The notes: generated by a model not told the origin, from the sequence alone. 64,000 nt of DNA from Rhodospirillaceae bacterium (GCA_029245025.1 JAQWQC010000008.1:44734-108733), one strand, 5' to 3'; counted from the first letter of the stretch, positions 40,407-64,000 are shown. Made by a program: numbers and translations.

Positions 40407-40608
40407 GGAGTTGTCCATCTCTCAACGTTGCTCAACAGGCTTGAGTCTTGGCATTGTTGATTCCCGCAGATCCCTAACAAGTGGTCGCGGCCATCTTTGC
40501 CTTGAATCCAACTCTACAGTTTTGGATCAAAGATAACCTGATAAGGCCGTTTCGATGATTTCGGTACAGCCCTAACCGACGGTACCTGAATTGCTCTCAT
40601 TTTCCGTA

Positions 40609-44060: not shown

Positions 44061-44211
44061 GGTGTGCCTTGTTTTGAGCGTCCTGTGACGCCTTAAGAAT
44101 CAGACAAAACAGCCGCAAGTGGCTGCTCTGTCAATGTTTTCTTTGATTTCGCCAAGCCATGCAACTAAGACTGAATGGAATTTGGCCAACTTCCAACTCG
44201 GTGTAGGCACC

Positions 44212-48508: not shown

Positions 48509-49711
48509 TTACTTTTGACCTGGCAGTTTATCCGGGTCCAACCCGAGCATTAATTTCCCATAGGGGACAGCGTTGCCATCCCACGAAAGGGCTTGGTGAC
48601 CTGTGGCTGCCAATACATCTTGGTTGGCGCGGTGGACAAGATTATCAGAGGTGAGGCCACCGCCCCCAAGGGCTTCTGCCAGCCGTTGTGTGGCGCGCCG
48701 GCACATCAGGGACAGATACGCACAGTTGCGGCGGATGCGGTATTGTTCGTGCTCTATCATGTCGCGATCGCTTTGGGCGATCTCTCGCATGATTCGCATA
48801 TCAGCATCGTAGATATCTCTCGCTGCGTCGATCTCAGCCGCAGATTCGGCGATGCGCACGTGCAGGGTTGCAAAACTGTCGAGCCGCTTGCCATCCACTA
48901 TGGATTGCCGAGATTTGACGGTGTTGCAGAAAGCGTCGAGTGCTGCGCGAGCCATGCCGATTACCGGTCCAGCAACGGAGTACTGCACCACCCGCGGCAT
49001 GGGTAAGTTGTAAGTCCATCCCGTGTTGAGAGTTTGCCCGATTGCCTTGCGCTTGTTGAGTTCCGTAAATGGGATCGTGCGATGAGTTGGCACAAATACG
49101 TCATCCACCATCACATTGTGACTACCCGTTCCAGCCAACCCAGGGGGATCCCAAACCGGGTTAATGCGGAAATCCGTAGACGGTAGTATCATCATGGTTG
49201 GTGCAGGCGGACCGTCTTCCTGTGGCACATAGACCATGATGGCGAACCAGCCGTCGGCGGTCACACCAGAGGCGAACACCCATTCCCCTGAGAGTTGATA
49301 TCCACCGCTTACGGCAGTGGCTTCCGCTTTCTTGAAAGCGAAGGCGCCAGCAACCCATGCCTTAGGGTCCGCACCCCAGATTTCGTCCTGAACTTCTGGG
49401 GAGCATTTCGCCAACCACCAATCATGGCTGCCAAGAATCCCTGCGACCCACCCGGTTGAGGAACAATGCCGCGCCAATTCCATGGCAACGTCCGTGTGCG
49501 ATCCAAAAGGCAGCTCTGGTCCCCCAAAGCGTGCTGGTTGGCAAGCGTTGATCAGGCCGTGATCGACAAGGTCGGCGACAGTTTCGTCTGGGAGGCGTCT
49601 AAGTTCACGTGCTTGGTCACGCCGTTCGGCCAGCTTCGGCCCTAAGGCTGCTGCGCGCGCGACAAGGTCTTCTATGGTGACGGAGCCTGCTTTTGCAGAG
49701 TCCGGCGCCAC
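48509..49711 (-). CDS. acyl-CoA-dehydrogenase-fold flavin-dependent monooxygenase, oxygenase component (HsaA/C2-HpaH-like), copy 1
   Basis: RRLPDETVADLVDHGL...QPARFGGPELPFG...STGWVAGILGSHDWWL...GTGSHNVMVDDVFVP resembles HsaA-type group D monooxygenases. GTG start. Confidence 0.8.
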   Translation of the reverse strand: MAPDSAKAGSVTIEDLVARAAALGPKLAERRDQARELRRLPDETVADLVDHGLINACQPARFGGPELPFGSHTDVAMELARHCSSTGWVAGILGSHDWWLAKCSPEVQDEIWGADPKAWVAGAFAFKKAEATAVSGGYQLSGEWVFASGVTADGWFAIMVYVPQEDGPPAPTMMILPSTDFRINPVWDPPGLAGTGSHNVMVDDVFVPTHRTIPFTELNKRKAIGQTLNTGWTYNLPMPRVVQYSVAGPVIGMARAALDAFCNTVKSRQSIVDGKRLDSFATLHVRIAESAAEIDAARDIYDADMRIMREIAQSDRDMIEHEQYRIRRNCAYLSLMCRRATQRLAEALGGGGLTSDNLVHRANQDVLAATGHQALSWDGNAVPYGKLMLGLDPDKLPGQK

Positions 49712-49714
49712 GTT

Positions 49715-50947
49715 TTAGTCCTTCGCTACCGCTGCTGTCCTGCGGTCCAGATCTGTTTGGCCATCATTCAAGCCGAACAACTGTTTGCCCCAAAGCGTTG
49801 CGTTCTTATCCCAAGATAGGGCGCCATGGGCTGCGCCTGACAAAGTATCTGAGAAGGATGTGTGCGCCGGGTTGCTGTCACTCATGCCGCCTGCGCCCAT
49901 GGATTCAATCACGCGTGACGCCGCGCGTTTGGATAGGGTGGCGACGTAAGCGCAGTTGCGTTTGAATTTGAGCAGTTCGTCCGGCCGAAGATTGCGGTCA
50001 TCATCAGCGGCCGCCCACATATGAGCGAGGTCCGCTCTGTATATGGAATGCGCGGCATCAATTTCTGCTGACGATTCCGCCGCCCGAAGTTGCAGGCTTT
50101 GCAGCTCTGCGAGTTTAGATTTGTCCTGGCCTTTGCGACCATTCATGCCATTGATGAAGTGATCGAGTGTGCCCTTGGCGCAGCCGAGCGTCGGGATAGC
50201 CACAGAATATCCAAAGACATCAAGCATGGGCAGTTTGTAAACGGCGCTGGTGTTGAGTTTGCAGCCTGGTGAATCTTTGCTGTTCAATTCAGCGACCCGT
50301 GTCACGCGATGGGCCGGAACAAATAAATCATCGACCACAACATTGTTTGACCCGGTTCCCCGCATACCCGGTGAGAACCAGACGTCGTCAATTGTGTATT
50401 CGCCCTTCTTGAGCAGCACCATTGTCAGGTCGGGAGGGCCATCGCCGTCAAAGACCGGGGTCATTAAGGACACCCAGTCGCAATGATCAATTCCCGAGCA
50501 CCACATCCATGTGCCAGAAACGATGACGCCATCGTCTTTGGGTTTACCCCCTGAGCCGGGCTGTGATGCGAAGGCTGCGCCAACCAGAGCATCGGGGTTA
50601 TCGCCCCAAACTTCATGCTGTGCATCAGGATCATATTTGCCGAGCCACCAGTTGTGACTGCCGATGATTCCGGATACCCAGCCTGTTGACCCACAATGTT
50701 TAGCCAGTTCCATGGCCACATCCGTGTGCGCGCCAAAGGGAAGCTCATAGCCGCCGAACCGTTCCGGCATGCAGGCGCGCAGAACTTTGGAGTCTACGAT
50801 CTCGGCAATTGAGGCGGCTGGGACCGATCGATTGGTAGCAGCCTTTTGGCGTCGCCCAAATATTGCCGGTCCCAAAGCTGAGGCGCGGGCAACAAGCTCC
50901 TCGGCGGTCGCACTGTCCGTGACGGTTTGGGCGGTGTCGGGGGGCAT
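49715..50947 (-). CDS. HsaA-like flavin-dependent monooxygenase oxygenase component, copy 2
   Basis: Paralog: ERFGGYELPFG...STGWVSGIIGSHNWWL...GTGSNNVVVDDLFVP. ATG 50947 has AGGAG 9 nt upstream; the ORF track extends to 50992. Confidence 0.8.
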   Translation of the reverse strand: MPPDTAQTVTDSATAEELVARASALGPAIFGRRQKAATNRSVPAASIAEIVDSKVLRACMPERFGGYELPFGAHTDVAMELAKHCGSTGWVSGIIGSHNWWLGKYDPDAQHEVWGDNPDALVGAAFASQPGSGGKPKDDGVIVSGTWMWCSGIDHCDWVSLMTPVFDGDGPPDLTMVLLKKGEYTIDDVWFSPGMRGTGSNNVVVDDLFVPAHRVTRVAELNSKDSPGCKLNTSAVYKLPMLDVFGYSVAIPTLGCAKGTLDHFINGMNGRKGQDKSKLAELQSLQLRAAESSAEIDAAHSIYRADLAHMWAAADDDRNLRPDELLKFKRNCAYVATLSKRAASRVIESMGAGGMSDSNPAHTSFSDTLSGAAHGALSWDKNATLWGKQLFGLNDGQTDLDRRTAAVAKD

Positions 50948-51032
50948 AGTGTGCGGCTCCTGAGTGGCGAAACAGAATGATCTATAATGCACCGGATGTA
51001 GCGGGATTCCCGGGGCAGGGCAACGGTTGGCG

Positions 51033-52232
51033 TTACGGTCCTAGCTTAGCTTCAGTGAGAACGCCGAGCTTGGCCATGCCATAGGGCAGAGCGCACGTGT
51101 CCCAAACCATTGATATATGGGAGCAGGCTGCCCCAATGTCCGCATAGGCTTTATGGACAAAATTATCATCGGCCAGGCCGCGGGCTCCCATCGCTTCGGC
51201 GAGGCGCCCCGTAGCGCGTTTAGACAATTTCCCAACGTAGGACGCGTTGCGTTTGAAGCGGGCGAGTTCTTCTAGGCTTAGGGCTGGACCTCCTTGAATA
51301 GAGTCCCGGACCCGCACCATGTCGTTTTCATAGAGAAGGCGTGCGCAGTCGATTTCCGCTGATGATTCAGAGGTTCGCATTTGTAGAGTCGCATTACCGG
51401 ATACTTTTTGGGCAAAGACATCCGTGCGCGGCACCATGTCTGCCGAGAAGCTATTTAATGCACCTTCGGCCAATCCAAGCGCGGGGGCAGAGACGCAATA
51501 GTTTATTACGCCGTTCATGGGGAGGCGGTACACGCTATTGGGGTTGCCCTCGGTTCCAGGTGTGTCGAGGCCATTGATTTCGGCATGACCGATGACCCGA
51601 TGTTCAGGGACAAATGCCTCCTCGATGACGAGGTCGTTACTGCCAGTGCCACGCAAACCGACGGTGCGCCAATTGTCTTGAATTTCGTAATCTTTTTTGG
51701 GCACCAACATAAACCAAATCTCTGGTGGTTTATCTTCATACATAATCCGCCCGATGACGATACACCAATCGCAGGCATGAATACCGCTTGAGAGCAGCCA
51801 CCGCCCGGAAATTTTAAATCCACCTTCGACTCGCTCAGTGGTTTGGTAGGCAGATGAAAAAGCTGAAGCGGAAATGGCGTCTGGGTTTTTGCCCCAAATG
51901 TCGTCCTGCGCGGACGGATCGAATTTTCCAAGCATCCAGTGGTGCGTGCCGCAAACGGACACAATCCAGGCAGACGATCCGCAGTGCTTGGCAATTTCTG
52001 CACCGGCTGACGTCTGAGCGCCAAACGGTAGTTCATAGCCGCCGACGCGGGCGGGTTGGCATCCCTTGAGCAAGCCAGCGCCGACTATGTCTCCAATGGT
52101 TTCGTCTGGGATGCGTCGCAGGTCATGGGTTTTAGCGCGTCGCTCGTCCAAAGTCGGACCAATTTTACGCGCTCGTTCGACCAAGTCGTCGACTGTTACT
52201 GCTGAAGCGTCACCGCTGGCGTCCGGGGCCAT
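51033..52232 (-). CDS. HsaA-like flavin-dependent monooxygenase oxygenase component, copy 3
   Basis: Paralog: ARVGGYELPFG...GTHHWMLG...GTGSNDLVIEEAFVP. ATG 52232 (MAPDAS..., GGAG upstream) parallels the copy 1 N-terminus. The ORF track starts at 52247. Confidence 0.8.
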   Translation of the reverse strand: MAPDASGDASAVTVDDLVERARKIGPTLDERRAKTHDLRRIPDETIGDIVGAGLLKGCQPARVGGYELPFGAQTSAGAEIAKHCGSSAWIVSVCGTHHWMLGKFDPSAQDDIWGKNPDAISASAFSSAYQTTERVEGGFKISGRWLLSSGIHACDWCIVIGRIMYEDKPPEIWFMLVPKKDYEIQDNWRTVGLRGTGSNDLVIEEAFVPEHRVIGHAEINGLDTPGTEGNPNSVYRLPMNGVINYCVSAPALGLAEGALNSFSADMVPRTDVFAQKVSGNATLQMRTSESSAEIDCARLLYENDMVRVRDSIQGGPALSLEELARFKRNASYVGKLSKRATGRLAEAMGARGLADDNFVHKAYADIGAACSHISMVWDTCALPYGMAKLGVLTEAKLGP

Positions 52233-52307
52233 ACCCGCAATCTCCATGTGGTCTTGATGCTAAGACGACTCTAGCGGGCGAGCCGGGTGCGGGCAAAGCG
52301 ATTCGGC

Positions 52308-52691
52308 TTAAATCTGACTGAGGTGCGCCAAGTGACCGGCGTTGTCTTCCCAGTTCTGACCATCGAAGGGTTCGACCTGAATTTCGCTAAAAGTGCTTTG
52401 ATCCAGGCAACGTATGTTGACGCTGTAGCCGTCCGGATTCGAGCGCGGGACGTAAAAGGATTTCACCCCACAGGTTCTGCAGAAAAGATGTTGTGCCACA
52501 CCCGTATTAAACGTGTAGGCCGTCAACGCGTCCTCGCCCTCTAGTAGTCTGAACCGATCAGCCGGAACGATGAGGTGAATAAAACCCACTTTCTCACACA
52601 TGGAACAATTGCAGGCTTGCGCGGTTACGGAGGCGTGGGCGACGACTTCAAACGCCACCGCGCCACAATGGCAGCCACCTTTATGCGTTAT
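52308..52691 (-). CDS. GFA-family (glutathione-dependent formaldehyde-activating / CENP-V-like) zinc protein with a non-canonical start
   Basis: CNCSMC and CRTCG motifs lie inside the tracked ORF (52308-52658). The family-typical KGGCHCGAVAFEV begins upstream of the GTG, where the only candidate initiator is ATA at 52691-52689. Confidence 0.65.
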   Translation of the reverse strand: MTHKGGCHCGAVAFEVVAHASVTAQACNCSMCEKVGFIHLIVPADRFRLLEGEDALTAYTFNTGVAQHLFCRTCGVKSFYVPRSNPDGYSVNIRCLDQSTFSEIQVEPFDGQNWEDNAGHLAHLSQI

Positions 52692-52716
52692 GAGAGCGCC
52701 ATCTTTTTTGCCATAG

Positions 52717-53361
52717 TTATGGCGCGAGCCGGGCGCGCAGTTCCTCGTATGGCACCATCACATGCTCCGCATACGCTGCGTTCTCGCGCAGGCGCGCGTA
52801 CCACGCCTCAACGTTGGGGATGGCCGGCCGCTCAATTTCTAACGTGAAGTAGCGATAAAATTGTGTGGCGATGGGAATGTCACCGTAGGTCAATTGATCA
52901 CCGGTGATGAATGCTTGCTTGCCTAGTACTTTATCAAGCTGTGTGAAATTTTCCCCACACGCCTTGGTCAGTTTGGCGAGTAGGGCATGGTCGTGATGTT
53001 CGACCGGTGTTCGATACAGATTCCAAAACAGTTGTATGAAATCATGCTGAAGGACCGTTTGCGCCCATTCCATCCACATATCGGCTGTTGTGCGCGGAGC
53101 GGGGTTTGAGGGCCAGAGTGATCCATCACCGTATTGGGCGGCGAGATAGCGCACAATCGCGTGGCTTTCCCAAACCGTCGCACTGTTATCTTCGAGAATG
53201 GGAATGAGACCGTGTGGATTGCGGGCTTTAATATCTGGCGAATCTAATCCGCCAAATTTTCCGCCGACGTCGATACGTTCATACTCTAGGTCAAGTTCCC
53301 CAATCGCCCACATTACTTTTTGGACGTTTATAGAACTGGCCCTGCCCCAAATTTTCAGCAT
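52717..53361 (-). CDS. glutathione S-transferase
   Basis: 214 aa reading SINVQKVMWAIGELDL...GLIPILED...VWESHAIVRYLA, a GST N-terminal fold pattern. Confidence 0.85.
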   Translation of the reverse strand: MLKIWGRASSINVQKVMWAIGELDLEYERIDVGGKFGGLDSPDIKARNPHGLIPILEDNSATVWESHAIVRYLAAQYGDGSLWPSNPAPRTTADMWMEWAQTVLQHDFIQLFWNLYRTPVEHHDHALLAKLTKACGENFTQLDKVLGKQAFITGDQLTYGDIPIATQFYRYFTLEIERPAIPNVEAWYARLRENAAYAEHVMVPYEELRARLAP

Positions 53362-53392
53362 GGCGTCGTGCTCCCGTTGCTATTTTTCAGCC

Positions 53393-54262
53393 TTAGCTGT
53401 TGACGGTGTCCTCAAAGGCTTTGACATCGTTCAAGCCCAACTTGGTGTTGGTTTCTTCGAGGGAGGCCATTTTATCAAGCCAGGGGCGTGAGTCGCCGGT
53501 CTCCTTGAGGTGAGCAAGAAATTCTGAGACCTGTCGCACGGCAATGCGTGAGGTGGTCGATGGCCAGATCGTGAGTTTGAAACCAATTTCTTCAAGCTCT
53601 TTGGCAGAAAGAATTGGGGTTAGACCTGTCTCACTCATGTTTGCCATCTGAGGGCCAATATCTGCATCGCAAATCTGTTGCAGTTCTTCGAGAGATTTAG
53701 GTCCATCGAAGAAAATCATGTCCGCGCCTGCATCCATAAACATCTTGGCGCGGTCCATGGCCTCGTCCATGCCATGTGGGCCACGTGAATCCGTGCGGGC
53801 GATGATGAGAAGGTCAGGGTCGGTCCGTGAGGCTACGGCGGCTTTGACTTTCCGTTCAGCAACATCTCGAGGCTCAACAAACTTGCCGGCCATATGGCCA
53901 CATTTTTTGGGCCAAATCTGATCTTCCAATTGCACACCTGCGACGCCGAGGGCTTCCATACCTTGGACGGTGCGTTTGACATTGGCGATGTCGCCATAGC
54001 CAGTGTCGCAATCAACGATCAAGGGAATCTCTGTCACCTGGCGCATGGCGCGGACTGTTTCTTCCAATTCTCCGTAACCGATCAGACCAACATCGGGCAC
54101 GCCATAGCGCACACAGGCACAGCCGTAGCCGGTCATGTATCCAACATCGAATCCGGCTTGCTCGATCAACTTGAGATCCAGCGGCGTTCCCGCACCCGGT
54201 GCAACGATCATGCCGGGGGCGGTCATTAGATCTCGAAGTTTCTTGCGTTGGGGCAGACTCAT
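53393..54262 (-). CDS. isocitrate lyase / PEP mutase superfamily enzyme (methylisocitrate-lyase / carboxyPEP-mutase / oxaloacetate-decarboxylase-like)
   Basis: CDTGYGD and EDQIWPKKCGHMAGK motifs. ATG 54262 has AGGAGA 6 nt upstream. Confidence 0.85.
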   Translation of the reverse strand: MSLPQRKKLRDLMTAPGMIVAPGAGTPLDLKLIEQAGFDVGYMTGYGCACVRYGVPDVGLIGYGELEETVRAMRQVTEIPLIVDCDTGYGDIANVKRTVQGMEALGVAGVQLEDQIWPKKCGHMAGKFVEPRDVAERKVKAAVASRTDPDLLIIARTDSRGPHGMDEAMDRAKMFMDAGADMIFFDGPKSLEELQQICDADIGPQMANMSETGLTPILSAKELEEIGFKLTIWPSTTSRIAVRQVSEFLAHLKETGDSRPWLDKMASLEETNTKLGLNDVKAFEDTVNS

Positions 54263-54283
54263 CAATTGTCTCCTATTGCCTTA

Positions 54284-54724
54284 TTAGGCGTTGTCAGTGA
54301 CGAGGCGTTCCATGCACGCTCGCAATTCTGTCGGGATGGGTGTCGGCTTGTTGTCAGGTCGTTGGACAAAAACATGCACAAAATGTCCATTAGCGGCGCA
54401 GTCGTCGTCGCCTTCGATGAATAGTCCAACTTCGTATCGTACTGATGAATTACCGAGCTTGCCGACGCGCAAACCTGCATCGACGACTTGGGGAAATTGA
54501 ATCGGCTTATGAAACGCGCAATGGGTTTCGATGGCGAGGCCGACAATGTCACCATGCTCAAAGTCTAGCCCGCCTTCACGGATCAAGTACTCGTTTATGA
54601 CTGTGTCAAAAAATGAGTAGTACACGACGTTGTTAACGTGCTGATAAACGTCATTGTCCTTCCACCGCGTTGGGATCTGTAGGAAGTGCTTGTAAGCGGA
54701 GCGGGATTCACCGCGCTGGGTCAT
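54284..54724 (-). CDS. hotdog-fold acyl-CoA thioesterase (4HBT/YbgC-like)
   Basis: 146 aa with the N-terminal pattern RWKDNDVYQHVNNVVYYSFFD. Confidence 0.8.
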   Translation of the reverse strand: MTQRGESRSAYKHFLQIPTRWKDNDVYQHVNNVVYYSFFDTVINEYLIREGGLDFEHGDIVGLAIETHCAFHKPIQFPQVVDAGLRVGKLGNSSVRYEVGLFIEGDDDCAANGHFVHVFVQRPDNKPTPIPTELRACMERLVTDNA

Positions 54725-54807
54725 GGCTTGTTATCCTGAACGATATCGCAAGCGCCTCGTATACCGGGCGCACCCTCCGCGAGCAAGCGGCGGGTTAAAG
54801 ACCGAAA

Positions 54808-55653
54808 CTAGAGTTCCGCTAAGACGTCTGCCACTTCATCAGCGTTGGTCATCATCGCGTTACGATGCCAGGGCATGGCGCGATAATCCCATTCCGGGTC
54901 ATCTTTGGCGGGTCCAACCATTCCCATCGTGGTCGGGCTGTAAATCTGTCCAACACAGTGCAGATAGGTCCGGGGCACGCCTTCCCAACCACCGTTTTTC
55001 AGCTCGAGCGTATCAGACCACCCTCGTGCGGGGTGGCGTGTGATGCGGCGTTTTGCCCAGGCGATGTTCTCTTCATCGTCTGCGGGGACAATCATTTCCA
55101 TAGGATATTCCTCAAAGAAATCCATCTGGTACCCGTCGACAAATTTCTCTTTTCTCTTCAGCCAGTAGTCTGAGGGCGAACCGTCTTCTTTTCTGCTTAC
55201 GCCACTGACGCGGTCTCCATGCGGCACCAAGGCATCCAAAAAGACCAACCGCTTGATTCGCTTTTTCATGCGGTCGGCAACGCCTGTGATGGTCAAACCA
55301 GCGAAGGAGTGGCCGACCAAGATCACATTTTGCAATTCTTCATACTCAATGATGTTGGCAATATCCGTGACGTGAGTGTCTAAGCCGACATCAGGGCTCA
55401 TGAGGTGCTTGCGGTCTCCGCACCCTGTGCAGGATGGTGCAAATACGTCATGTCCCCGGGCTGCTAGGTTGCGCCGCACATCGCGCCACTGCCATCCGCC
55501 ATGCCAAGTGCCGTGGACCAAAACAAAAGCTTTGCGCCCGGCGCTGCCGGAGTCACTTGCGGCGAGGGCGGTGCTGGCTGACAGCGCCGAAGCTGCGATG
55601 CCCAAGCCACTAGCGACGGCGCGACGGGAGAGCCCTGATTTGTGAGCGGTCAT
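54808..55653 (-). CDS. Tat-exported alpha/beta hydrolase of the plant-type methylesterase (SABP2/MES-like) family
   Basis: Twin-arginine signal MTAHKSGLSRRAVASGLGIAASALSASTALAA. VLVHGTWHGGWQWRDV and nucleophile elbow GHSFAG. ATG 55653 has AAGGAA upstream; the ORF track extends to 55800. Confidence 0.8.
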   Translation of the reverse strand: MTAHKSGLSRRAVASGLGIAASALSASTALAASDSGSAGRKAFVLVHGTWHGGWQWRDVRRNLAARGHDVFAPSCTGCGDRKHLMSPDVGLDTHVTDIANIIEYEELQNVILVGHSFAGLTITGVADRMKKRIKRLVFLDALVPHGDRVSGVSRKEDGSPSDYWLKRKEKFVDGYQMDFFEEYPMEMIVPADDEENIAWAKRRITRHPARGWSDTLELKNGGWEGVPRTYLHCVGQIYSPTTMGMVGPAKDDPEWDYRAMPWHRNAMMTNADEVADVLAEL

Positions 55654-56002
55654 GGCAGATGTTCCTTGTTTTCTGTGGCTTTCAAAGCGAACAGGCCTTT
55701 TTTTGAGGTTTTTTGCAACCCCAGGCGACCCTTTGCCGTTAGTGGTTGGTAAGGTCGGGCGGTTCAAGGAGTTCTCAAGTGTCGCCGTCTTGACCTGCAC
55801 GCTTAGTCCTCATGGACCGCTCGGCCTTGCCACCGTATCCCGGCGCTTTATGCGTCTTGTGTAAAATCGGAGGCTACAATGGCCAAATATTATGCTCTCG
55901 CACTTTCACTTGCTTACCCTGCCGGCGCTGTCGCGTCTCAGCTTGGGATCACCGTCCTCGGGCTATAGAGAGCCACACCAAAGTCGTACTACGCACGCTT
56001 AA

Positions 56003-56032
56003 CCTCTGCTTGGGTCTTTTGACAAGCAGAGG
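56003..56032 (-). terminator. 10-bp perfect hairpin downstream of the minus-strand small ORF; possible terminator
   Basis: CCTCTGCTTG-(10 nt)-CAAGCAGAGG lies 21 nt after the stop at 56053. No clear U-tract follows, so terminator function is uncertain. Confidence 0.3.
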
Positions 56033-56052
56033 AGTGTTAAGCAGTGAGGCAA

Positions 56053-56412
56053 TCAGTCTTCAAGCTCCGTGTTTTTGCCGTCACCTTTTTGTTGTAACGA
56101 GTCCAGTTCGTCTTGGACGGTTTTGAGCACACGAGCTATGTAGGCGCTGCGGCGTTCTGTACGAACTGCATTGACGTCATCTGGAATTTCGTAGTGCTCT
56201 ATATCATCGACTTTAAAGAGACCGTTGCTTTCGATGAGGCGCTCTACTGTGTCGAGGCGATCTCGCGTCACCGACAGTTCACCCATGAGGGTCAGAACCA
56301 TTGAAAGCAGTTTATCTACGGTGGGGTCGGCAAAGTACTGCGGCTTTTTGCCTTTGGCTGTGCGTGGCAGTTTGATTTTCTTTTGATCATCTTTGGGCAT
56401 GGTGCGTCCCAT
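56053..56412 (-). CDS. small helical protein of unknown family, paralog s1
   Basis: 119 aa. Shares LPRTAKGKK-x-YFADPTVDKL...DRLDTVERLI...DDIE blocks with 59145-59453 and 59480-59833. Starts 32 nt after the methyltransferase stop. Confidence 0.65.
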   Translation of the reverse strand: MGRTMPKDDQKKIKLPRTAKGKKPQYFADPTVDKLLSMVLTLMGELSVTRDRLDTVERLIESNGLFKVDDIEHYEIPDDVNAVRTERRSAYIARVLKTVQDELDSLQQKGDGKNTELED

Positions 56413-56444
56413 CCTTCTTTGCAGTCGTTCTGTTGATTATCGTT

Positions 56445-57575
56445 CTATTTGATCGCCATGGTGATGGGGAATTCGAAGCCATCGTCGGCGTAAGGCGTTT
56501 GATCTTCCATCCAAAATGATCCGGCCGATTTTGGAAGAATGTTCTCATCTTTAAAGCCGGCCTTGCGGCAGAGCTCAGGCATATCCATGTCGCGCAACTG
56601 GGCGAAGAAGTGTTCGTTGTTGTTGTATATTTCCCACTCGAACAGGAACCCTTCCAGGGGTGGTTGGCCATGAGCTTGCGGCAAATCCATATGCATCATC
56701 ACCCCGCCGGGCTTGAGCAAGCGGTAGGATTCATTGAAAACGTTCTGAATTGCCGTGCGTGATGTTTCGTGCAGGAGAATATGGGACATCACAATGTCGA
56801 AGCTCTCATCTTCAAAATTGGTGTGCTCCGCATTCTGCTGACTGAAATGTACGGCAGCGCCTAACGCCTCGGCGCGTGCATGACCATAACGTAGCACCGG
56901 AGCACCAACATCCAGGCCATGGCATTCGGCGTCTGGCATTTGCTGGGCCCAATAGGTGATGGAACCGCCGATGGTGCAGCCCATGTCCAGGATGCGTTTC
57001 GGTTTGGCATCGGGAAATTCGTTCTTGAAAAAGCCATAGGTGATTTGGCCGAGGGCGTTGTTGCCGGTGCCAAGACCACCCATGGAATAAATATAGGTGC
57101 CCCAGTCGTACATCGCGCCGGCGGCGACATCGTCATCGATTTGATCCGAATGATACGCACCCGGTTGCAAATGGATATCTGCAGCCACGTGATACTTCGG
57201 TGTTTCTAGATCTGGGTCGAGGGTCAACGATCCCTTGTTTCCCGGCTTGCGCGACTTTTCAATGAGCTCTGGCAATTGACGCTCAACCGAATCAATCACT
57301 GAATCCCAGATCATTTCCTGACTGTTGCGCTGCATGGCGCTCCAGAAGGAATAGTAGGGATCATGGGTCATGACTCGGCGTACTTCATGACGCGTTTCCG
57401 GTTCCCGGCCTTTATCCTTAATGAACTGAGGAAGAACCCTATTGTAATAGGTCGGGAAGTTTCCTGGGAAAACCTGGCTGGCCAAATGGACGCGGAAATC
57501 ATTGACGAAAGACTGGCGTGACTCTTCGTCGTGAACGCGCTTTGCAAGCATGCTGTGGTCTGAAAGAGGGATCAT
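56445..57575 (-). CDS. class I SAM-dependent methyltransferase-like protein with an uncharacterised ~170-aa N-terminal domain, paralog MT1
   Basis: Motif I ILDMGCTIGG, acidic post-I HGLDVGAP, FEDESFDIVMSHILLHETS and LLKPGGVMMH. GGAG 8 nt upstream of the ATG. Confidence 0.85.
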   Translation of the reverse strand: MIPLSDHSMLAKRVHDEESRQSFVNDFRVHLASQVFPGNFPTYYNRVLPQFIKDKGREPETRHEVRRVMTHDPYYSFWSAMQRNSQEMIWDSVIDSVERQLPELIEKSRKPGNKGSLTLDPDLETPKYHVAADIHLQPGAYHSDQIDDDVAAGAMYDWGTYIYSMGGLGTGNNALGQITYGFFKNEFPDAKPKRILDMGCTIGGSITYWAQQMPDAECHGLDVGAPVLRYGHARAEALGAAVHFSQQNAEHTNFEDESFDIVMSHILLHETSRTAIQNVFNESYRLLKPGGVMMHMDLPQAHGQPPLEGFLFEWEIYNNNEHFFAQLRDMDMPELCRKAGFKDENILPKSAGSFWMEDQTPYADDGFEFPITMAIK

Positions 57576-57747
57576 GGAAATCTCCGCTGCAATCGTTTGG
57601 TGATGGGCTGCACCTTATCGGGGTCAGCAAAGGAGGCGAGTCCTCTGCCTTGGGCGATCATCTGTTGGTCAGAGTATCGCCGGGCTTTGCGGCCAATTCA
57701 AAGGATTACAGCGTCCGGTGCATTGACCTTCGTCAAGCGGGGTGTAG

Positions 57748-59136
57748 CTAGGTCGCCGGGCAGACGTGGTCGACTAATACGGCGGTGTCGTCCAGCGTCT
57801 CGAGTTGTTCAATGATGCCAATCAATGCTTCCCCTCGGGCGCGCGGCATCTCTGACTTGGCCGCTGACCAACAGGCCCAGAACTTTTCAAGTTGGCGGTC
57901 ACGCGGCAGGGGATTGAGGGGGTCACCAATAGCGCGCTCAATTGTAAGGCTGTGTTCCGTCCCATCTTTTAAGACGACAGATATAGACTGCGGTCCAAAC
58001 GCATTGAGATCAGGATTGTCATCTTCAATAACGGTGACGCGACGGGCCAAGTCGTGGGTGGTTTCGTTGGCCAAGGCATCGATCGCAAAGTCGTGTTGGG
58101 TCACTGTACCGTTCAACAACGTAGCCGCGCAGACATAGCCGAGGCACAGCTTTGCGTAGTTCGGTTGTGGGTTTGGAATATCTGGCCGTCCGACGAGGCG
58201 ATTGGCCAGAGGCGGAACGCGACACGTTACGGTCTGCACGTCATCTGCTGTAAACCCGTGTTCAGCGGTGAGACGTTGCAACGCATCAACGGCAAAGTGG
58301 GTAAGTCGACCAGACGGAAACGGCTTATGCCCGACTTCACAGAGGCGAAAGACTTTGCCCCATTGAGACCACGCCGGCTCCAGGTCGTAGTCACCCTCCA
58401 TCAGAACAAGGTAGCCGTACATACCCGTCAGAATATCTTTTGGCCCTTCGATCCCGGCATCGGCCAGGTCGCAGGCGACCAAGGCATTGCGCGCGGCGAA
58501 GCCAACCTGCAACCCCAGCAGTCGCGAGCCTTCAATATGGGCCTGCATATTGCCGCCCGCTTGGCCGTAGTACAGGCCGAGAGCGTTATGGAGCTGGGGA
58601 CCGCCGAAGCCGCGCAGCAGGGATACCGCGGTTGTTGCGCCAAAGCCGCCGGTCAGGGCCGGTCGGAAAAATCTCATAGGCGCGTTTGAAGATGTAGCAA
58701 TGGAGCACGAGACATCAATGCCCATGGCGATGGCCCGAATGAGATCGCGTCCGTTGATCTTGCGTCCTAGTCCGGCCTGCCGATCGACTTCTGCCATGGT
58801 CGCAGCCATGAGGGTGGACATGGGGTGAAGCACGCCGCCTTCATGGACGCAGTCGAATTCTAGGCAGTGAATTTGGTAGGCGTTGACGACAGCGGCGCTG
58901 GTTGGTGGTAAGCGATCCGGGCGCGCCCATACTCTCGCGCCGTCTCCGGTTCCCCAAAGCTGTGCTGCTGTAAGGGCTTCATCTGACGATGGGCCAGTCG
59001 ATCCCGCTAGCGCACAAGAGAACGTATCAAGGACAAATATTTTAGCTGCCTCGACGGCGGCTGCGGGAAGATCTTCGAATCCGGTGCCCATAACATGGGC
59101 GACCATTGGCTCAACCGGATTGCCTTGAGATGTCAC
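57748..59136 (-). CDS. MmgE/PrpD family protein
   Basis: 462 aa. N-terminus ...VAHVMGTGFEDLPAAAVEAAKIFVLDTFSCALAG is typical of the 2-methylcitrate-dehydratase family. GTG start 8 nt after the upstream stop. Confidence 0.85.
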   Translation of the reverse strand: MTSQGNPVEPMVAHVMGTGFEDLPAAAVEAAKIFVLDTFSCALAGSTGPSSDEALTAAQLWGTGDGARVWARPDRLPPTSAAVVNAYQIHCLEFDCVHEGGVLHPMSTLMAATMAEVDRQAGLGRKINGRDLIRAIAMGIDVSCSIATSSNAPMRFFRPALTGGFGATTAVSLLRGFGGPQLHNALGLYYGQAGGNMQAHIEGSRLLGLQVGFAARNALVACDLADAGIEGPKDILTGMYGYLVLMEGDYDLEPAWSQWGKVFRLCEVGHKPFPSGRLTHFAVDALQRLTAEHGFTADDVQTVTCRVPPLANRLVGRPDIPNPQPNYAKLCLGYVCAATLLNGTVTQHDFAIDALANETTHDLARRVTVIEDDNPDLNAFGPQSISVVLKDGTEHSLTIERAIGDPLNPLPRDRQLEKFWACWSAAKSEMPRARGEALIGIIEQLETLDDTAVLVDHVCPAT

Positions 59137-59144
59137 AGGTCAGA

Positions 59145-59453
59145 TCAATCTTTTGGACCAGGTTCCGGATGCATGCGAAAGACCCGCTTCAAATAGGCTT
59201 CACGCCGTTCATTGCGCGCCGCTTCAACATCTTCATTTGGGCGATAAGCCTCTATGTCATCGCGGCTAATGGTTCCCTTGTCATCCAGCAGACGCTCCAT
59301 AGTGTCTAAGCGGTCGTAGACCACAGACACCTCGGCCGATAGTTCCAGGATAAACGTCATCATTTGATCAATCGCGGGATCGTCGAAAAAGACTGATCGT
59401 TTGCCCTTGGCGTCGCGGGGGAGGGTGATCTTGGGTTCTGCTTTCTGTGTCAT
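59145..59453 (-). CDS. small helical protein of unknown family, paralog s2
   Basis: 102 aa reading ITLPRDAKGKRSVFFDDPAIDQMM...YDRLDTMERLLDDKGTISRDDIEAYRP. Confidence 0.7.
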   Translation of the reverse strand: MTQKAEPKITLPRDAKGKRSVFFDDPAIDQMMTFILELSAEVSVVYDRLDTMERLLDDKGTISRDDIEAYRPNEDVEAARNERREAYLKRVFRMHPEPGPKD

Positions 59454-59479
59454 CTCTGTACTCGTTTTGTGGGCCGGTC

Positions 59480-59833
59480 TTAGGATTTGGCCAGTTCGTC
59501 CATCAGGGCGTTGTATTCGTCCATTTTGTCGTGGGCCACAAGTGTTTCTCGCTCTTCCCTGATAATGCGAAACAATCGCGATATGTAGTCGTTGCGCCGA
59601 TCGTTCCGTTCGTCTTCAACACCTTGATCCGGTCTAAAGGCCTCAATGTCATCGCGGCTCAGCGTGCCCTTCTTATCGAGCAGGCGTTCGATGGTGTCGA
59701 CCCGGTCGTAAAGAACAGACATCTCAGCTGACATCGCCATAACAATAGCCATAAGTTGATCGATGGCCGGGTCGTCGAAAAACGCTGGCCGCTTACCACG
59801 ATTTACCGGGGTGATCTTGATGTCGTCACTCAT
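59480..59833 (-). CDS. small helical protein of unknown family, paralog s3
   Basis: 117 aa from ATG 59833 (AAGGGA upstream, 7 nt after the MT2 stop), reading ITPVNRGKRPAFFDDPAIDQLM...YDRVDTIERLLDKKGTLSRDDIEAFRP. The ORF track extends to 59899. Confidence 0.7.
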   Translation of the reverse strand: MSDDIKITPVNRGKRPAFFDDPAIDQLMAIVMAMSAEMSVLYDRVDTIERLLDKKGTLSRDDIEAFRPDQGVEDERNDRRNDYISRLFRIIREERETLVAHDKMDEYNALMDELAKS

Positions 59834-59840
59834 TGCGGTG

Positions 59841-61031
59841 TCATCCCTTTTTCCATGCGCCCCAGCCGGTCCAATGTATTGATTCACCCAGGCGGCCATA
59901 CCGCTCGGCTTTGTTTTCTGGACCGGAAGCCGCAGCTCCGAAAATCTCCTGCGGAACGGAGTAAACGTCCGGCGTCATCACTTCCATATAGTCTTCGTCA
60001 CTGAACCCGGCGTCCGCATAGGCGGCCTTTAGGTCGGTTGATGTAAACGCCTGATAAAACGGCTCGTTGTTATAGTAGGAGTCCCAGTCGATATAGAAGG
60101 CGTCGAAAGGGTCCATTTCGGCAGTGCGCGGTAGCTCCATGTGAATCATCAGTCCGCCGGGCTTTAGGACTCGGTGGCATTCAGAGAGTATTTTTTTCAT
60201 CGCGGTACGAGATGTTTCATGAAACGTGACGACGGACAGCACGAGGTCGAAGCTCTCGTCCTCGAACGACATATCTTCCCCATTCATTTGATGCAGGTGC
60301 ATGGGCTGGTTGAGGGACTCTGCCCGTCCGTGGGCGTAACGTAAAACGGGAGCACTGACATCGATCGCGTGAACTTCGGAGTCAGGGTATATGTCGACAA
60401 ACGGTAGGATGTTGTGTCCCACGGTGCAGCCGATATCTAGAATTCGTTCAGGCCGGAAATCGGGGAACCGAATTTTTAAATGTTGAGCAAGGGATCGACC
60501 AATTGAATCGCCGTACGGTCCGCCATGACCGCCAGCATAGACATACACGCCCCGGTCATACAGTGCGCCTTGCGATACATCTCCCGGTGCCCGTTCTGAG
60601 TGATAGTTACCAGGCATAAGGTGAATGTCGCTGGCGGTCACGTAGCGCGGTACGTCAACTTCAGGGTTTAGAGTCAAAGACCCCTTTGGCGTTTTGGCGA
60701 GTGCGGTGGCCTTGGAATTGAGGTCGGGTTGGGCGCGCTCAATGGAGGGGATGATGGAGTCCCAAATCATTTCTTGGGCTGAGCGCATCATACTCGACCA
60801 TGTTCTGCAGTAGGGGTCATCCATCATTGCATGCCGGACTTCATGTTCGTCCTTCGGCGCACGCCCTTTGTTTTTTTCAAAACTTGGTTTGACCCGTGAT
60901 TCATAAACGCCACGCAACCCTCCACCGATTTCTTGCAGGGTAAACATGCGCAGGGCAGACACATAGGACTGCAGCGCGTATTCATCGTGCGTGGAATCAA
61001 CGGTCAAGCCGTGCGGAGCTTGTGAAGCCAT
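59841..61031 (-). CDS. class I SAM-dependent methyltransferase-like protein, paralog MT2
   Basis: ILDIGCTVGH, HAIDVSAP, FEDESFDLVLSVVTFHETS and VLKPGGLMIH. AAGGAG 6 nt upstream of the ATG. Confidence 0.85.
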   Translation of the reverse strand: MASQAPHGLTVDSTHDEYALQSYVSALRMFTLQEIGGGLRGVYESRVKPSFEKNKGRAPKDEHEVRHAMMDDPYCRTWSSMMRSAQEMIWDSIIPSIERAQPDLNSKATALAKTPKGSLTLNPEVDVPRYVTASDIHLMPGNYHSERAPGDVSQGALYDRGVYVYAGGHGGPYGDSIGRSLAQHLKIRFPDFRPERILDIGCTVGHNILPFVDIYPDSEVHAIDVSAPVLRYAHGRAESLNQPMHLHQMNGEDMSFEDESFDLVLSVVTFHETSRTAMKKILSECHRVLKPGGLMIHMELPRTAEMDPFDAFYIDWDSYYNNEPFYQAFTSTDLKAAYADAGFSDEDYMEVMTPDVYSVPQEIFGAAASGPENKAERYGRLGESIHWTGWGAWKKG

Positions 61032-61101
61032 GAGAATCTCCTTAGATGAAGTGTCATCATAGTCTAAGAAGTAATCTGAACGAGTCTAGAGACGCCGAAG
61101 A

Positions 61102-61329
61102 TTAGGGGCCAGCAGGCGGAGGTTGTGCCATAAACAGCCCATTGCCGCCTGGTTCTACCAGGATCATTTCTTTTTCAGGCGGATAATTCTCAGCTTTTGC
61201 AGCCTCTTCTGGGGTCATTAACACCTTGTAACCGCCCGCCACGACGCGCTCGTAGACAGCGTTAACGTCCTCTGCGGAGAGGGCTAGAGTTGTCGCCTTT
61301 GCAGTGTTGGCGGCGGCATCGATGGTCAT
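61102..61329 (-). CDS. 75-aa ORF resembling a single beta-alpha-beta-beta-beta (VOC/glyoxalase-like) module; possibly the 3' part of a frameshifted gene
   Basis: LALSAEDVNAVYERVVAGGYKVLMTPEE...ILVEPGGNGLFM. It has no SD of its own. Its ATG overlaps (ATGA) the stop of a 33-codon signal-peptide-like ORF (61326-61427) that does have one. Confidence 0.4.
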   Translation of the reverse strand: MTIDAAANTAKATTLALSAEDVNAVYERVVAGGYKVLMTPEEAAKAENYPPEKEMILVEPGGNGLFMAQPPPAGP

Positions 61330-61437
61330 GCCCGGCGCAGATCTGCCATGCTGGCGTCTTCATGGCTGTCTGACCAAGCGGTTGACGTGGCGATGACTGA
61401 GATAACAGCCGCGGCGAGTAAGCGCACCGTGTCGCCC

Positions 61438-62607
61438 TTAAACCGGAACCGTGCCGGGGTTGTACTCGAACAAACCAATGCTTTCTTCGTTCTTGTGTTT
61501 TGAGTCGTCGTACTCGCTAGGGTTATCGCTTTGCAGGCGTTCGCGAGCGGCGCGTGACTTGACTAAGACATAATTCGCACGCTCTTTGCGAGCGGCTTCA
61601 TAGCGTGAGAGGGCTTCATCAATTGTATCCGACGCGCCAAACGCTCGACCAAGAACGACACCGTCTTCGATCCCCATAGCGGCACCCATGCCCATAAATG
61701 GCAACATCGGGTGCGCTGCATCACCGAGCAAAGTCACGCGGCCTTTGGTCCATTGCTCCAAAGGGTCGCGATCATAAAGCGCCCATTTAAAGACTTTATC
61801 TTCGGGAGCAGCTTTGATGAGATCACTGACGCGCGGATGCCAGTCGCCAAACTCTTCAAGCAGTTCTTCTTGGGTTACCGGAATTGACCACCCTTCTTCG
61901 TCCCAGCCGTCGCGACGAACAAAAGCGACAAAGTTAATCACGCTGCCATTGCGAACGAGGTATCGCGTAAATGCCTTGCGCGGTGCTATGGCCACGCCGG
62001 ACGGAGGCGTAACCAAATCGTCTGACAGGTCACCCTTGTTGACGAGACCGCGATAGGCAACGTTACCGGTGAACTTTGGGTCTTCAGGGCCGAACATATC
62101 GGTCCGTACCGCAGAGCGAATCCCGTCCGCACCAATCACAACATCGCAGGAGACCTTGTTGCAATTGGTGAATGTGATTTCAATGCCATCGTCTGTTTCG
62201 ACACAGCTTGAAAAGGCGTGATCAAGAACCAAACAGTTGGGATCCGTAGCTTTGGCTTTGGCCGAAAGCATATCGTGCAAATCGGCGCGATGAATTTGAT
62301 AGTAGTACGCGCCATATTTTTGGAAAGGAATTTCACCTCGCTTGGTCTCAACCAGTATTTCCCCAGTCTGGTAGTGCATGATTGCTTGTGCTTCGGGGAC
62401 GTTGGCACGTTTCTTTAGATCCTCCGCTAAACCGACGTATTCAAGTCCGTGGGTGGAGTTCGGGCTTATTGTCAGACCTGCACCAACCTCGCCAAGTTGG
62501 GGAGCGAGCTCATAGACAACAGGCTTAAACCCATTCTTTTGGAGAGAGAGGGCGGCCGTGAGTCCAGCCATGCCTGCGCCAATTACAGCGATGCGAATAT
62601 CTTTCAT
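61438..62607 (-). CDS. FAD-dependent aromatic-ring hydroxylase (salicylate / 3-hydroxybenzoate hydroxylase-like)
   Basis: IAVIGAGMAGLTAAL (GxGxxG), and GDAAHPMLPFMGMGAAMGIEDG. ATG 62607 is preferred over ORF-track GTG 62655. Confidence 0.85.
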   Translation of the reverse strand: MKDIRIAVIGAGMAGLTAALSLQKNGFKPVVYELAPQLGEVGAGLTISPNSTHGLEYVGLAEDLKKRANVPEAQAIMHYQTGEILVETKRGEIPFQKYGAYYYQIHRADLHDMLSAKAKATDPNCLVLDHAFSSCVETDDGIEITFTNCNKVSCDVVIGADGIRSAVRTDMFGPEDPKFTGNVAYRGLVNKGDLSDDLVTPPSGVAIAPRKAFTRYLVRNGSVINFVAFVRRDGWDEEGWSIPVTQEELLEEFGDWHPRVSDLIKAAPEDKVFKWALYDRDPLEQWTKGRVTLLGDAAHPMLPFMGMGAAMGIEDGVVLGRAFGASDTIDEALSRYEAARKERANYVLVKSRAARERLQSDNPSEYDDSKHKNEESIGLFEYNPGTVPV

Positions 62608-62749
62608 GGGTGCGTCGTATCCTAAACAAGCGTGTTTTTTATTTTCGTTACCCACCTAGAGCGCATTCAAGAAGGCGCGACAATCCGCTTGGGATTGTAA
62701 ATCCAAGTAGCGGTCGTTTACCTGTCAGTTTGTGAGGTGCGAGTGAGAG

Positions 62750-63931
62750 TTATTTCCATGCGCCGTAGGTGTACCAACGGGCACTTTCACCGACCCGTGC
62801 GGCCCGGCCGTTTGCAACAGTAGGGTTGGTAACGGCCTCTTGAAAAAATTCTGGCGTCGATCGATCGAGATCGGGAATTGACACCTGCCAGAACTTATCT
62901 TGCGCGAATCCGGCGCCAGTCACCCATTCCTGTGGGTCGAGGTTGGTGTAGGTCTTATAAAAAGGCTCGTTATTATAATATGCGTCCCAATCGATATAAA
63001 ACGCGTCGAAATCATCCATGTTGGACACAGGCGTGAGTTCCGTATGGGCCATCATGCCGCCAGGTGCCAGCACCCGTTGGCACTCTTCCAATATTTTTGG
63101 GTACGCGGTGCGCGAAGTTTCATGAAAAATGATGCACGAGAAAATGAGATCAAATGACTCATCTTCGAAAGTCATATTTTCCGCATTCATCTGGTGAAAA
63201 TGAATTGGTTTAGCCAAAGCTTCAGCGCGCGCATGACCGTATCGCAGGGATGGCGCACTGACGTCGATCGCATGCACTTCGGCTTCGGGGAAGGCGTCAA
63301 CGAAGGGAACGGTTGACGTTCCGATAGTACACCCTAACTCTAAAATTCTTTTTGGTTTGAGGTCGGGCCAACGCGCTTTGATATACGCAGCCATGGTACG
63401 GGGGATGCCGTCCGCGAAGGGACCCGCTGCACCGCCGTTATAAACAAAGCGCCCGCGGTCATAGAGGGCGCCCTGGGTTGCGTCGTTGTCTGCTCGCTCG
63501 GAGTGATAATTGCCTGGCATGCGGTGAATATCGGCAGCCTCCAGATAACGAGGCATAGCAACATCGGAATTCAGGTTCAGAGAGCCGTAGTGTGCATTCA
63601 CACCACGTACTCTCTCGTTCAGGTCAGGCTGAGCCCGCTCAATGGCGGGCCGAACCGAATCCCAGACCATGTCCTGACAATTGACCATCATTGTTGACCA
63701 CGTCCGGCCGTAGTGGTCGGCCATCATGGCTTTGTGGATTTCCGTTTCGTTTTTGGGACTCCGCCCGTTGTCCTTTTCAAAGGCAGGTTTGACACGGTTC
63801 TCATAGACGTCTCGCATGCCGCCGCCGATTTGGTTCAGGATATGCATGCGCAAACGCGACACATAGTGCTGGCGGTTCATTTCATCGTGATTGCCGGTCA
63901 CCAAAAAACCGTGTTCGTGTTGTAGCGGCAT
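62750..63931 (-). CDS. class I SAM-dependent methyltransferase-like protein, paralog MT3
   Basis: ILELGCTIGT, HAIDVSAP, FEDESFDLIFSCIIFHETS and VLAPGGMMAH. ATG 63931 has AGGA 9 nt upstream. The ORF track extends to 63970. Confidence 0.85.
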   Translation of the reverse strand: MPLQHEHGFLVTGNHDEMNRQHYVSRLRMHILNQIGGGMRDVYENRVKPAFEKDNGRSPKNETEIHKAMMADHYGRTWSTMMVNCQDMVWDSVRPAIERAQPDLNERVRGVNAHYGSLNLNSDVAMPRYLEAADIHRMPGNYHSERADNDATQGALYDRGRFVYNGGAAGPFADGIPRTMAAYIKARWPDLKPKRILELGCTIGTSTVPFVDAFPEAEVHAIDVSAPSLRYGHARAEALAKPIHFHQMNAENMTFEDESFDLIFSCIIFHETSRTAYPKILEECQRVLAPGGMMAHTELTPVSNMDDFDAFYIDWDAYYNNEPFYKTYTNLDPQEWVTGAGFAQDKFWQVSIPDLDRSTPEFFQEAVTNPTVANGRAARVGESARWYTYGAWK

Positions 63932-63942
63932 GACGTTAAGTC

Positions 63943-64000
63943 CTACTTCCAGGCACCGTACATGTTCCACATCACCAGCTCACCCCAGTGGCCATGGGTG
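63943..64000 (-). CDS. 3' end of a probable fourth methyltransferase paralog (MT4), truncated by the window edge
   Basis: The open frame ...THGHWGELVMWNMYGAWK* ends in the same YGAWK C-terminus as MT3 (...WYTYGAWK*) and a tail similar to MT2 (...GWGAWKKG*). Confidence 0.5.
   Translation of the reverse strand, partial: THGHWGELVMWNMYGAWK

Follow-up and report, generated by a model that had tools for sequence, protein, structure and literature searches.

The 64,000-nucleotide (nt) stretch of Rhodospirillaceae bacterium DNA analysed here (JAQWQC010000008.1:44734-108733; hereafter the window, with positions counted from its first letter) carries three minus-strand genes for small related proteins, which we call s1, s2 and s3, placed among genes for predicted class I S-adenosylmethionine (SAM)-dependent methyltransferases. 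The s1 gene (56053-56412; 119 aa as listed) encodes a long form with an acidic C-terminal tail and lies directly downstream of MT1 (56445-57575, minus strand), a 376 aa methyltransferase recognized by Pfam (Methyltransf_25/11/31, residues 193-296). The other two copies are in tandem: s3 (59480-59833; 117 aa), a long form with a helical acidic tail, follows the gene of the 396 aa paralogous methyltransferase MT2 (59841-61031, minus strand; Pfam), and s2 (59145-59453; 102 aa), a short form without an acidic tail, is located between s3 and a gene of the MmgE/PrpD family (57748-59136, minus strand; Pfam PF03972 and PF19305). A third paralogous methyltransferase recognized by Pfam, MT3 (62750-63970, minus strand; 406 aa), is followed by a gene for a flavin adenine dinucleotide (FAD)-dependent monooxygenase and has no small gene directly downstream. 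The gaps between methyltransferase and small genes and between small genes are short (7-32 nt): s1 starts 32 nt past the MT1 stop (44 nt if its second Met is used), s3 starts 7 nt past the MT2 stop and s2 starts 26 nt past s3, while the s2 stop lies 8 nt ahead of the PrpD-like gene.

The open reading frame (ORF) list bears out the positions of the three genes that had been proposed by an earlier sequence-only reading, with two remarks on start codons. The orthologues of s1 are 115-116 aa long, so that its true start is probably the second Met, at position 56400, giving a protein of 115 aa. For s3, the mechanical ORF reaches 59899 (139 aa), which would make it run into MT2. This long form is found in some database entries, but the 117 aa form is the common one among orthologues and is supported by their lengths. 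Two of the proteins are already deposited from a Rhodospirillaceae metagenome-assembled genome (MAG): s2 is an exact match to NCBI MDG2242905.1 (‘hypothetical protein’) and s3 to MDG2242906.1.

A six-frame translation of the window searched with the family hidden Markov model (HMM) returned s1, s2 and s3 as the only copies (E values of 6.6e-46, 7.4e-44 and 5.9e-47, respectively, i.e. from 6e-47 to 7e-44). The MAFFT alignment of the three contains 29 invariant columns, with s1 being 45% identical to s2 and 36% identical to s3, and its only indel, of four residues, falls at the very start of s3. The core, about 88 residues long and free of gaps, runs from the I-K/T-L/I-P/T motif to about R100, in agreement with the roughly 85 residues previously claimed. 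The motifs quoted in that reading are correct overall, except that s3 has R-G-K-R in place of K-G-K-R and D-R-R in place of E-R-R. None of the three proteins contains a Cys.

Orthologues in related contigs are under strong purifying selection: pN (the proportion of nonsynonymous differences) is 0.015-0.24 against a pS (the synonymous counterpart) of 0.64-1.0, at which synonymous sites are saturated. The s1 orthologues alone give a pN of 0.015-0.21 with saturated pS, and for close orthologues pN is at most 0.1. Where dS is unsaturated, orthologue comparisons yield dN/dS values of 0.016-0.03 (0.016 for s3 and its counterpart in locus L004), while the comparison of s2 with s3 gives 0.185. The homologue search and dN/dS estimate proposed as checks in the sequence-only reading thus gave 1296 homologues and confirmed coding selection. 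Judged from these sequence comparisons, s1, s2 and s3 are paralogues and real genes, far beyond chance, since the database holds 1296 homologues and the pN of orthologues is far below their pS.

These 1296 database proteins were found with a profile of s1-s3 at E ≤ 1e-3, and an exhaustive HMMER search against 50%-identity cluster representatives gave 1333 matches, 631 of them with E ≤ 1e-10. The family is distributed over Alpha- and Gammaproteobacteria, Nostoc-type cyanobacteria and one MAG labelled Thermodesulfobacteriota, and it occurs in cultured strains (Sphingomonas sp. ERG5, Croceicoccus sp. BE223, Salinisphaera sp. PC39 and Nostoc linckia). Every NCBI or UniRef name is ‘hypothetical protein’, including those of the RefSeq entries of Sphingomonas sp. 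ERG5, Croceicoccus sp. BE223 and Nostoc linckia NIES-25. A JGI name on one Nostoc member, ‘Zn-ribbon nucleic-acid-binding’, is contradicted by the protein itself, which lacks any Cys. Searches of Pfam-A, NCBIfam, PHROGs and PADLOC gave nothing significant for s1-s3, scans of 51 diverse family members gave no significant domain match beyond scores of the histone H1-like HC2 domain on appended tails, a PDB sequence search with two family profiles was empty and Foldseek found zero PDB matches for the predicted structure of s2. Nothing relevant was found in the literature on this gene combination or on a methyltransferase with a small accessory protein. The claim that the family is undescribed therefore stands: by sequence and profile comparison it is real, widespread and unnamed, without a detectable homologue of known function or structure.

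Column statistics were drawn from 151 diverged family representatives (residue numbering of s2). They define an N-terminal motif, (L-P)-R-x-A-[K/R]-G-x-[R/K]-P-x-[F/Y]-F-x-D-P-x-x-[D/E], in which G17 is conserved at 96% and P20 at 89%, whereas the basic positions exchange Lys and Arg (K16 is K in 77% and R in 14%; R19 is R in 79% and K in 15%). The motif is followed by a long helix with E41 (100%), V44 (93%), R48 (97%), D50 (93%) and E53 (97%), then by a turn region, G-x-x-x-x-x-I-E-x-[Y/F]-x-P, and by a last helix with R80 (97%), R84 and R90. Conservation spans the whole core of 85-90 residues; there is no conserved Cys or His, and Cys is never the commonest residue at any column. The AlphaFold2 model of s2, built from 46 homologues, has a mean predicted local distance difference test (pLDDT) score of 78 and a predicted template-modelling (pTM) score of 0.48. 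It contains helices at residues 26-59, 64-69 and 74-94, forming a helical hairpin with a pLDDT of 86-93 across residues 31-90, and a heptad-like hydrophobic spacing in this hairpin is visible in the sequence. Residues 1-25 have no secondary structure in the model (mean pLDDT of 53 over residues 1-20). The N-terminal motif is thus predicted to be disordered yet is highly conserved, and the combination of a low pTM with a conserved unstructured N-terminus is a pattern typical of a segment that folds on a partner.

Outside this core the members differ in their ends. There are short forms such as s2 and forms with an acidic helical tail, to which s1 and s3 belong; distant taxa also have forms that bear long Lys/Ala/Pro-rich, H1-like tails at one end or the other. 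In many distant members (among them P0137, P0142, P0150, P0156, P0130 and P0251) these tails comprise 40-120 residues and are N- or C-terminal. Through such appended tails, two of the 51 scanned members match HC2 (PF07382; 1.9e-7); the window copies do not have them.

MT1-MT3 are 41% identical to one another and keep the SAM-binding motifs. Their Pfam hits are generic (Methyltransf_11/12/23/25/31, with Methyltransf_25 at 1e-19 to 1e-21), and the family comprises 4229 proteins at E ≤ 1e-10, all with generic names. The L-D-x-G-C-x-x-G motif and a downstream Asp are invariant in the three proteins and mostly so in an alignment of 54 homologues (the Asp residues being nearly invariant or below). 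The AlphaFold2 model of MT1 (pLDDT 88.6) shows a long N-terminal hairpin made of two helices (15-55 and 73-108), ahead of a Rossmann core with a pLDDT above 90. Sequence and model together thus give MT1-MT3 the features of class I SAM-dependent methyltransferases, namely a Rossmann core, a glycine-rich motif I and an acidic residue after strand 2. Foldseek returned 1107 methyltransferase matches to the MT1 model at E ≤ 0.001. Its neighbours in the PDB, with TM-scores of about 0.4, are small-molecule methyltransferases: Rv2258c, phosphoethanolamine N-methyltransferases, DsyB, Coq5, NovO/CouO, RebM and LahSB. The full-length alignments (about 400 aligned columns) are with family-2 O-methyltransferases. 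At the sequence level, the best PDB match of the core is LahSB, a peptide C-terminal carboxyl methyltransferase (1.8e-9), and similarities in NCBIfam include the carboxyl methyltransferases BioC and trans-aconitate methyltransferase. A defence-system role was considered and rejected: MT1 matches PADLOC mad2 (5.9e-15) only through the generic core (residues 170-294), in a metabolic context.

The association of the small genes with methyltransferase genes extends well beyond the window. We scanned one genome per species and collected 72 loci, in which a tblastn recount gave 122 family genes; the loci belong to Rhodospirillaceae MAGs of marine and freshwater origin, to Sphingomonadales, to Steroidobacteraceae and other Gammaproteobacteria, to Salinisphaera and to Nostoc/Desmonostoc. 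One more pair is found on metagenome contigs, and its methyltransferase cluster takes its NCBI name from a Thermodesulfobacteriota MAG. A methyltransferase homologue lies immediately upstream and on the same strand for 68 of the 122 family genes and immediately downstream for 13, so that 81 directly adjoin one; 114 have one within about 8 kb. Among loci of at least 15 kb, a methyltransferase is present in 45 of 47. Several loci (L060, L062, L054, L057 and L039) have 4 nt start/stop overlaps or 2 nt gaps, and two of these coupled starts match exact RefSeq proteins. The other neighbours change with the taxonomic group: a PALP enzyme in the Nostoc loci; a TonB receptor, a major facilitator superfamily (MFS) transporter, an old yellow enzyme (OYE)-like flavoprotein, a short-chain dehydrogenase/reductase (SDR) and GntR in sphingomonads; isochorismatase, alpha/beta hydrolase, hydantoinase A/B, CoA-transferase III and FAD monooxygenase in several proteobacterial groups. 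The methyltransferase is therefore the one constant companion.

Divergence of the two genes runs in parallel. The distance matrix of 68 methyltransferases and that of the small proteins encoded beside them are correlated with a Mantel r of 0.92 (the maximum in 999 permutations being 0.15), and paralogue clades are mirrored, the MT2 clade going with the s3 clade in nine of nine cases and the Sphingomonas clade in five of five. Mirrored clades and correlated distances indicate that both genes have duplicated and diverged as a unit. In Steroidobacteraceae and related bacteria (L054, L057, L073 and L074) the gene order is symmetric, small-MT-MT-small; in L054 and L057 there are 4 nt overlaps at the small-MT and MT-MT junctions and a gap of about 30 nt at the MT-small junction. 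From its layout, this order suggests a duplicated two-gene module that is transcribed and translated as a unit.

The sequence-only reading had offered three ideas for the small proteins, as partner or specificity subunits, as methyl-accepting substrates or as regulators. The first is the best supported of the three because of adjacency across phyla, translational coupling and mirrored divergence. We therefore propose tentatively, with a probability of about 0.45, that s1-s3 are non-catalytic partners or adaptors of this methyltransferase clade in catabolic-type clusters. As cytoplasmic proteins of about 100-120 aa, they would act as an adaptor, stabilizer or substrate-pocket lid of the methyltransferases. 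The hairpin of the small protein could pack on the N-terminal hairpin of the methyltransferase and/or its conserved N-terminal peptide could fold onto the enzyme, and stability, activity or substrate selection would then depend on the hetero-oligomer so formed. Rather than being strictly private subunits, the small proteins may make up a set of adaptors, possibly hetero-oligomeric, that is shared within the pathway, since copy numbers are not 1:1 and some copies stand beside PrpD-like or OYE-like enzymes. On this gene-content evidence, a shared adaptor or scaffold set appears as plausible as private subunits.

Several observations, however, weigh against a partnership, or at least against its strict form. 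A methyltransferase homologue is located elsewhere within the locus (about ±8 kb) for 33 of the 122 family genes and is absent from the locus for eight. These eight are in seven loci, five of which are contigs of at most 11.5 kb; two loci of 16 kb, L023 (8001-10132, with the order s2-PrpD-s1) and L041 (8004-8330), carry family genes without a methyltransferase and conflict with an obligatory adjacent-methyltransferase partnership. Moreover, s2 and s3 persist without MT2 in L001, L011, L016, L019 and L020, MT3-type paralogues have no adjacent small copy, and the loci contain one to five methyltransferases against one to three small genes. Since some copies persist where there is no methyltransferase, the two genes do not pair strictly 1:1. 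The earlier statement that each copy follows a methyltransferase or another copy thus holds in the window, but elsewhere there are copies without a cognate methyltransferase or beside other enzymes. Sphingomonas-type clusters illustrate the latter: in L039 (5477-10282; Sphingomonas sp. ERG5), L029-L032 and L042, an s2-like copy lies between the TonB-dependent receptor gene and that of a 658 aa OYE-like flavoprotein (FMN + Pyr_redox_2, the architecture of trimethylamine/histamine dehydrogenase and 2,4-dienoyl-CoA reductase). In the same loci, two methyltransferases are located about 5 kb to either side, one with its own small gene. No natural methyltransferase-small fusion occurs among the best 150 representatives or in the loci; the apparent fusions in L042 and L047, long ORFs with a small domain, proved to be spurious high-GC ORF extensions. 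Finally, simple co-inheritance of neighbouring genes also predicts a high Mantel correlation.

Part of this evidence would fit a broader role, in which the small proteins, as homo- or hetero-oligomers, would build the coiled-coil scaffold of a metabolon that gathers methyltransferases, PrpD-like and OYE-like enzymes, as in a UbiJ/UbiK-like role, with the tailed members tethered to a polyanionic surface. Rhodospirillaceae clusters have two or three small genes for one to five methyltransferases, so that the number of small genes is the steadier of the two; copies of the s2 type directly adjoin PrpD-like or OYE-like genes; conservation of the small proteins equals or exceeds that of the enzymes; and the heptad-like spacing of the predicted hairpin points in the same direction. 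On the other hand, most distant taxa have a single methyltransferase and a single small gene amid unrelated neighbours, and Pfam detects no homology to UbiK. We consider such a scaffold unlikely.

A similarly low likelihood is given to the idea that the small proteins regulate expression of the cluster by binding nucleic acids or otherwise, the basic arm or the H1-like tails touching DNA or RNA and the genetic linkage reflecting co-regulation. The conserved basic N-terminal motif and Arg residues, the Lys/Ala/Pro-rich tails of many distant members (two of 51 scoring as HC2) and the persistence of copies without an adjacent methyltransferase would all be compatible with it. Yet Pfam scans of s1-s3 and of the 51 members show no helix-turn-helix, ribbon-helix-helix or other DNA-binding domain, the window copies have acidic tails or none, and the sole label pointing to nucleic acids is the one on the Cys-free Nostoc member. 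The gene arrangement is also atypical for a transcription factor (within operons right after enzyme genes, with coupled starts and two or three paralogues per cluster), and the clusters carry TetR or GntR regulators of their own.

Least likely of all, in our view, is that the small protein is a methyl-accepting substrate or a switch that controls the pathway, with a methyl ester on Glu41 or Glu53 or a methylated conserved Arg that the alpha/beta hydrolase would demethylate in a CheR/CheB- or LCMT/PME-like manner. It is true that the only invariant or near-invariant residues are charged (E41, R48, E53 and R80), that LahSB is the best core match and NCBIfam shows a likeness to BioC and trans-aconitate methyltransferase, and that the cluster in the window and 12 distant loci encode an alpha/beta hydrolase. 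These enzyme similarities cover only the generic Rossmann core, however, and are far below family cut-offs; the structural neighbours are small-molecule methyltransferases, and the CheR N-terminal and CheR methyltransferase domains are absent from the Pfam hits of MT1-MT3. The invariant charged residues could equally form inter-helix salt bridges, and each of the two kinds of gene is also found without the other. As for the Lys/Arg-rich N-terminus originally suggested as the methyl acceptor, its case is weakened, because Lys and Arg swap freely in this segment and the structural relatives of the methyltransferases act on small molecules.

The genes described above belong to a co-directional minus-strand cluster that occupies 48509-64000 of the window. 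The FAD-dependent monooxygenase, of the salicylate-hydroxylase type (61438-62655, minus strand; Pfam FAD_binding_3, E 1.7e-27), lies between MT3 and MT2 and is also kept in related clusters, and the s2-PrpD order is conserved in Rhodospirillaceae loci. The rest of the cluster (48509-55800, minus strand throughout) was assigned from the Pfam domains of syntenic genes in L001, L002 and L077, matched to the window by BLAST. It includes genes for an alpha/beta hydrolase (54808-55800), a 4HBT thioesterase (54284-54724), an isocitrate lyase (ICL)/phosphoenolpyruvate (PEP)-mutase-like protein (53393-54265), a glutathione S-transferase (GST; 52717-53361), a GFA protein (52308-52658) and three Acyl-CoA_dh_2 paralogues (48509-52247), two of which were also scanned directly. 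In the same syntenic contigs the cluster has as many as five methyltransferase paralogues and also encodes hydantoinase A/B, an HMGL-like lyase, CoA-transferase III and isochorismatase; the presence of several methyltransferases inside a catabolic-looking pathway is unusual. A scan of 55600-64000 found no more promoter and terminator signals than shuffled sequence would give, and it yielded no operon boundaries.

Beside the cluster are unrelated housekeeping genes, for a prepilin peptidase (40591-41343) and for MetW with a MetX-like hydrolase (42253-44060), together with those for an aminotransferase and a prephenate dehydrogenase (44119-46192) and for a DUF2125 protein (46869-47912). The first third of the window contains very long minus-strand ORFs (1159, 1000 and 789 aa) at 8172-14650 and 16920-19289.

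With its more than 1300 diverged clusters, the family spans at least three bacterial phyla and occurs in cultured strains, yet it has no name, domain model or structure. If the small proteins are obligatory partners, the methyltransferases expressed alone in a heterologous host would fail or mislead, and annotation pipelines would overlook a subunit. These methyltransferases are common in catabolic clusters of marine Rhodospirillaceae, with up to five paralogues, and the combination of methyltransferase and small gene provides a two-gene marker for an unexplored pathway with hydantoinase, isochorismatase-type amidase, CoA-transferase and PrpD/ICL-type enzymes. By analogy with known activators, one may go further and imagine obligatory small subunits for small-molecule SAM methyltransferases throughout bacteria, a helical-hairpin counterpart of the eukaryotic and archaeal Trm112 with another fold, in which two or three paralogous adaptors would gate or target a battery of methyltransferases and perhaps other enzymes of a catabolic pathway; we regard this generalization as rather doubtful. 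In a bolder version still, the adaptor itself may be reversibly methylated on an invariant Glu or Arg and serve as a pathway switch.

How does this arrangement compare with known systems? A small ORF beside a class I methyltransferase gene, with LahSB as the best core match, recalls the precursors of ribosomally synthesized and post-translationally modified peptides (RiPPs) and their tailoring methyltransferases, as in the LahSB system. The small proteins are, however, conserved over their full length under purifying selection and have a predicted fold, instead of a conserved leader with a variable core; other RiPP genes are absent and the clusters look catabolic. PspB (PF06667/TIGR02976) gives the only recurrent weak similarity, through the leucine-zipper-like D-R-L-D-T-x-E-R-L-L helix: PF06667 matches six of the 51 members with a best E value of 0.006, and TIGR02976 scores 18.6 bits for s3 against a cut-off of 51.7. 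PspB begins with a transmembrane helix, whereas the N-terminus of the present family is Lys/Arg-rich and predicted to be disordered, and the genomic contexts differ.

The family-2 O-methyltransferases (Rv2258c, DsyB, RedM and SibL) provide another point of reference. Their N-terminal helical domain mediates dimerization and contributes to the substrate pocket of the partner subunit, and the N-terminal hairpin of MT1 occupies the place of this dimerization/lid domain. The likeness is limited, with TM-scores against MT1 of only 0.40-0.44, root-mean-square deviations of 15-19 Å and N-terminal domains that are not superposable. To our knowledge, family-2 O-methyltransferases have no separate small subunit; by analogy, a helical partner acting in trans could play the role of the dimerization domain here.

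UbiK (YqiC/BMFP; PF04380), which functions with UbiJ, is a non-catalytic coiled-coil accessory factor of about 90-100 aa in the metabolon for ubiquinone biosynthesis, a pathway with the class I methyltransferases UbiE and UbiG. It resembles the small proteins in size, in its coiled coil and in the proposed non-catalytic aid to enzymes that include class I methyltransferases. It differs in that s1-s3 and the 51 members have no Pfam match to it, in that its gene is not beside methyltransferase genes and in having no counterpart of the R-x-A-K-G-x-R-P-x-F-F-x-D-P motif.

The closest functional analogy to the proposed partner role is Trm112 (PF03966), a small non-catalytic activator of the class I methyltransferases Trm9, Trm11, Mtq2 and Bud23, which depend on binding it for their stability or activity; a single Trm112 can serve several methyltransferase paralogues. 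Here too Pfam gives no match, either for s1-s3 (E ≤ 1) or for the 51 members. Trm112 combines a zinc knuckle with a helical domain and contacts its enzymes through a beta-zipper interface, whereas the present family has a predicted helical hairpin without conserved Cys or a Zn knuckle, and the partners of Trm112 modify RNA or protein, while the methyltransferases described here resemble small-molecule enzymes and are encoded in metabolic clusters. The most likely role of the family, as a small accessory protein for methyltransferases, is a known kind of arrangement, as in Trm112 and UbiK; what is new is the fold, the motif, the bacterial small-molecule methyltransferase as partner and the catabolic setting.

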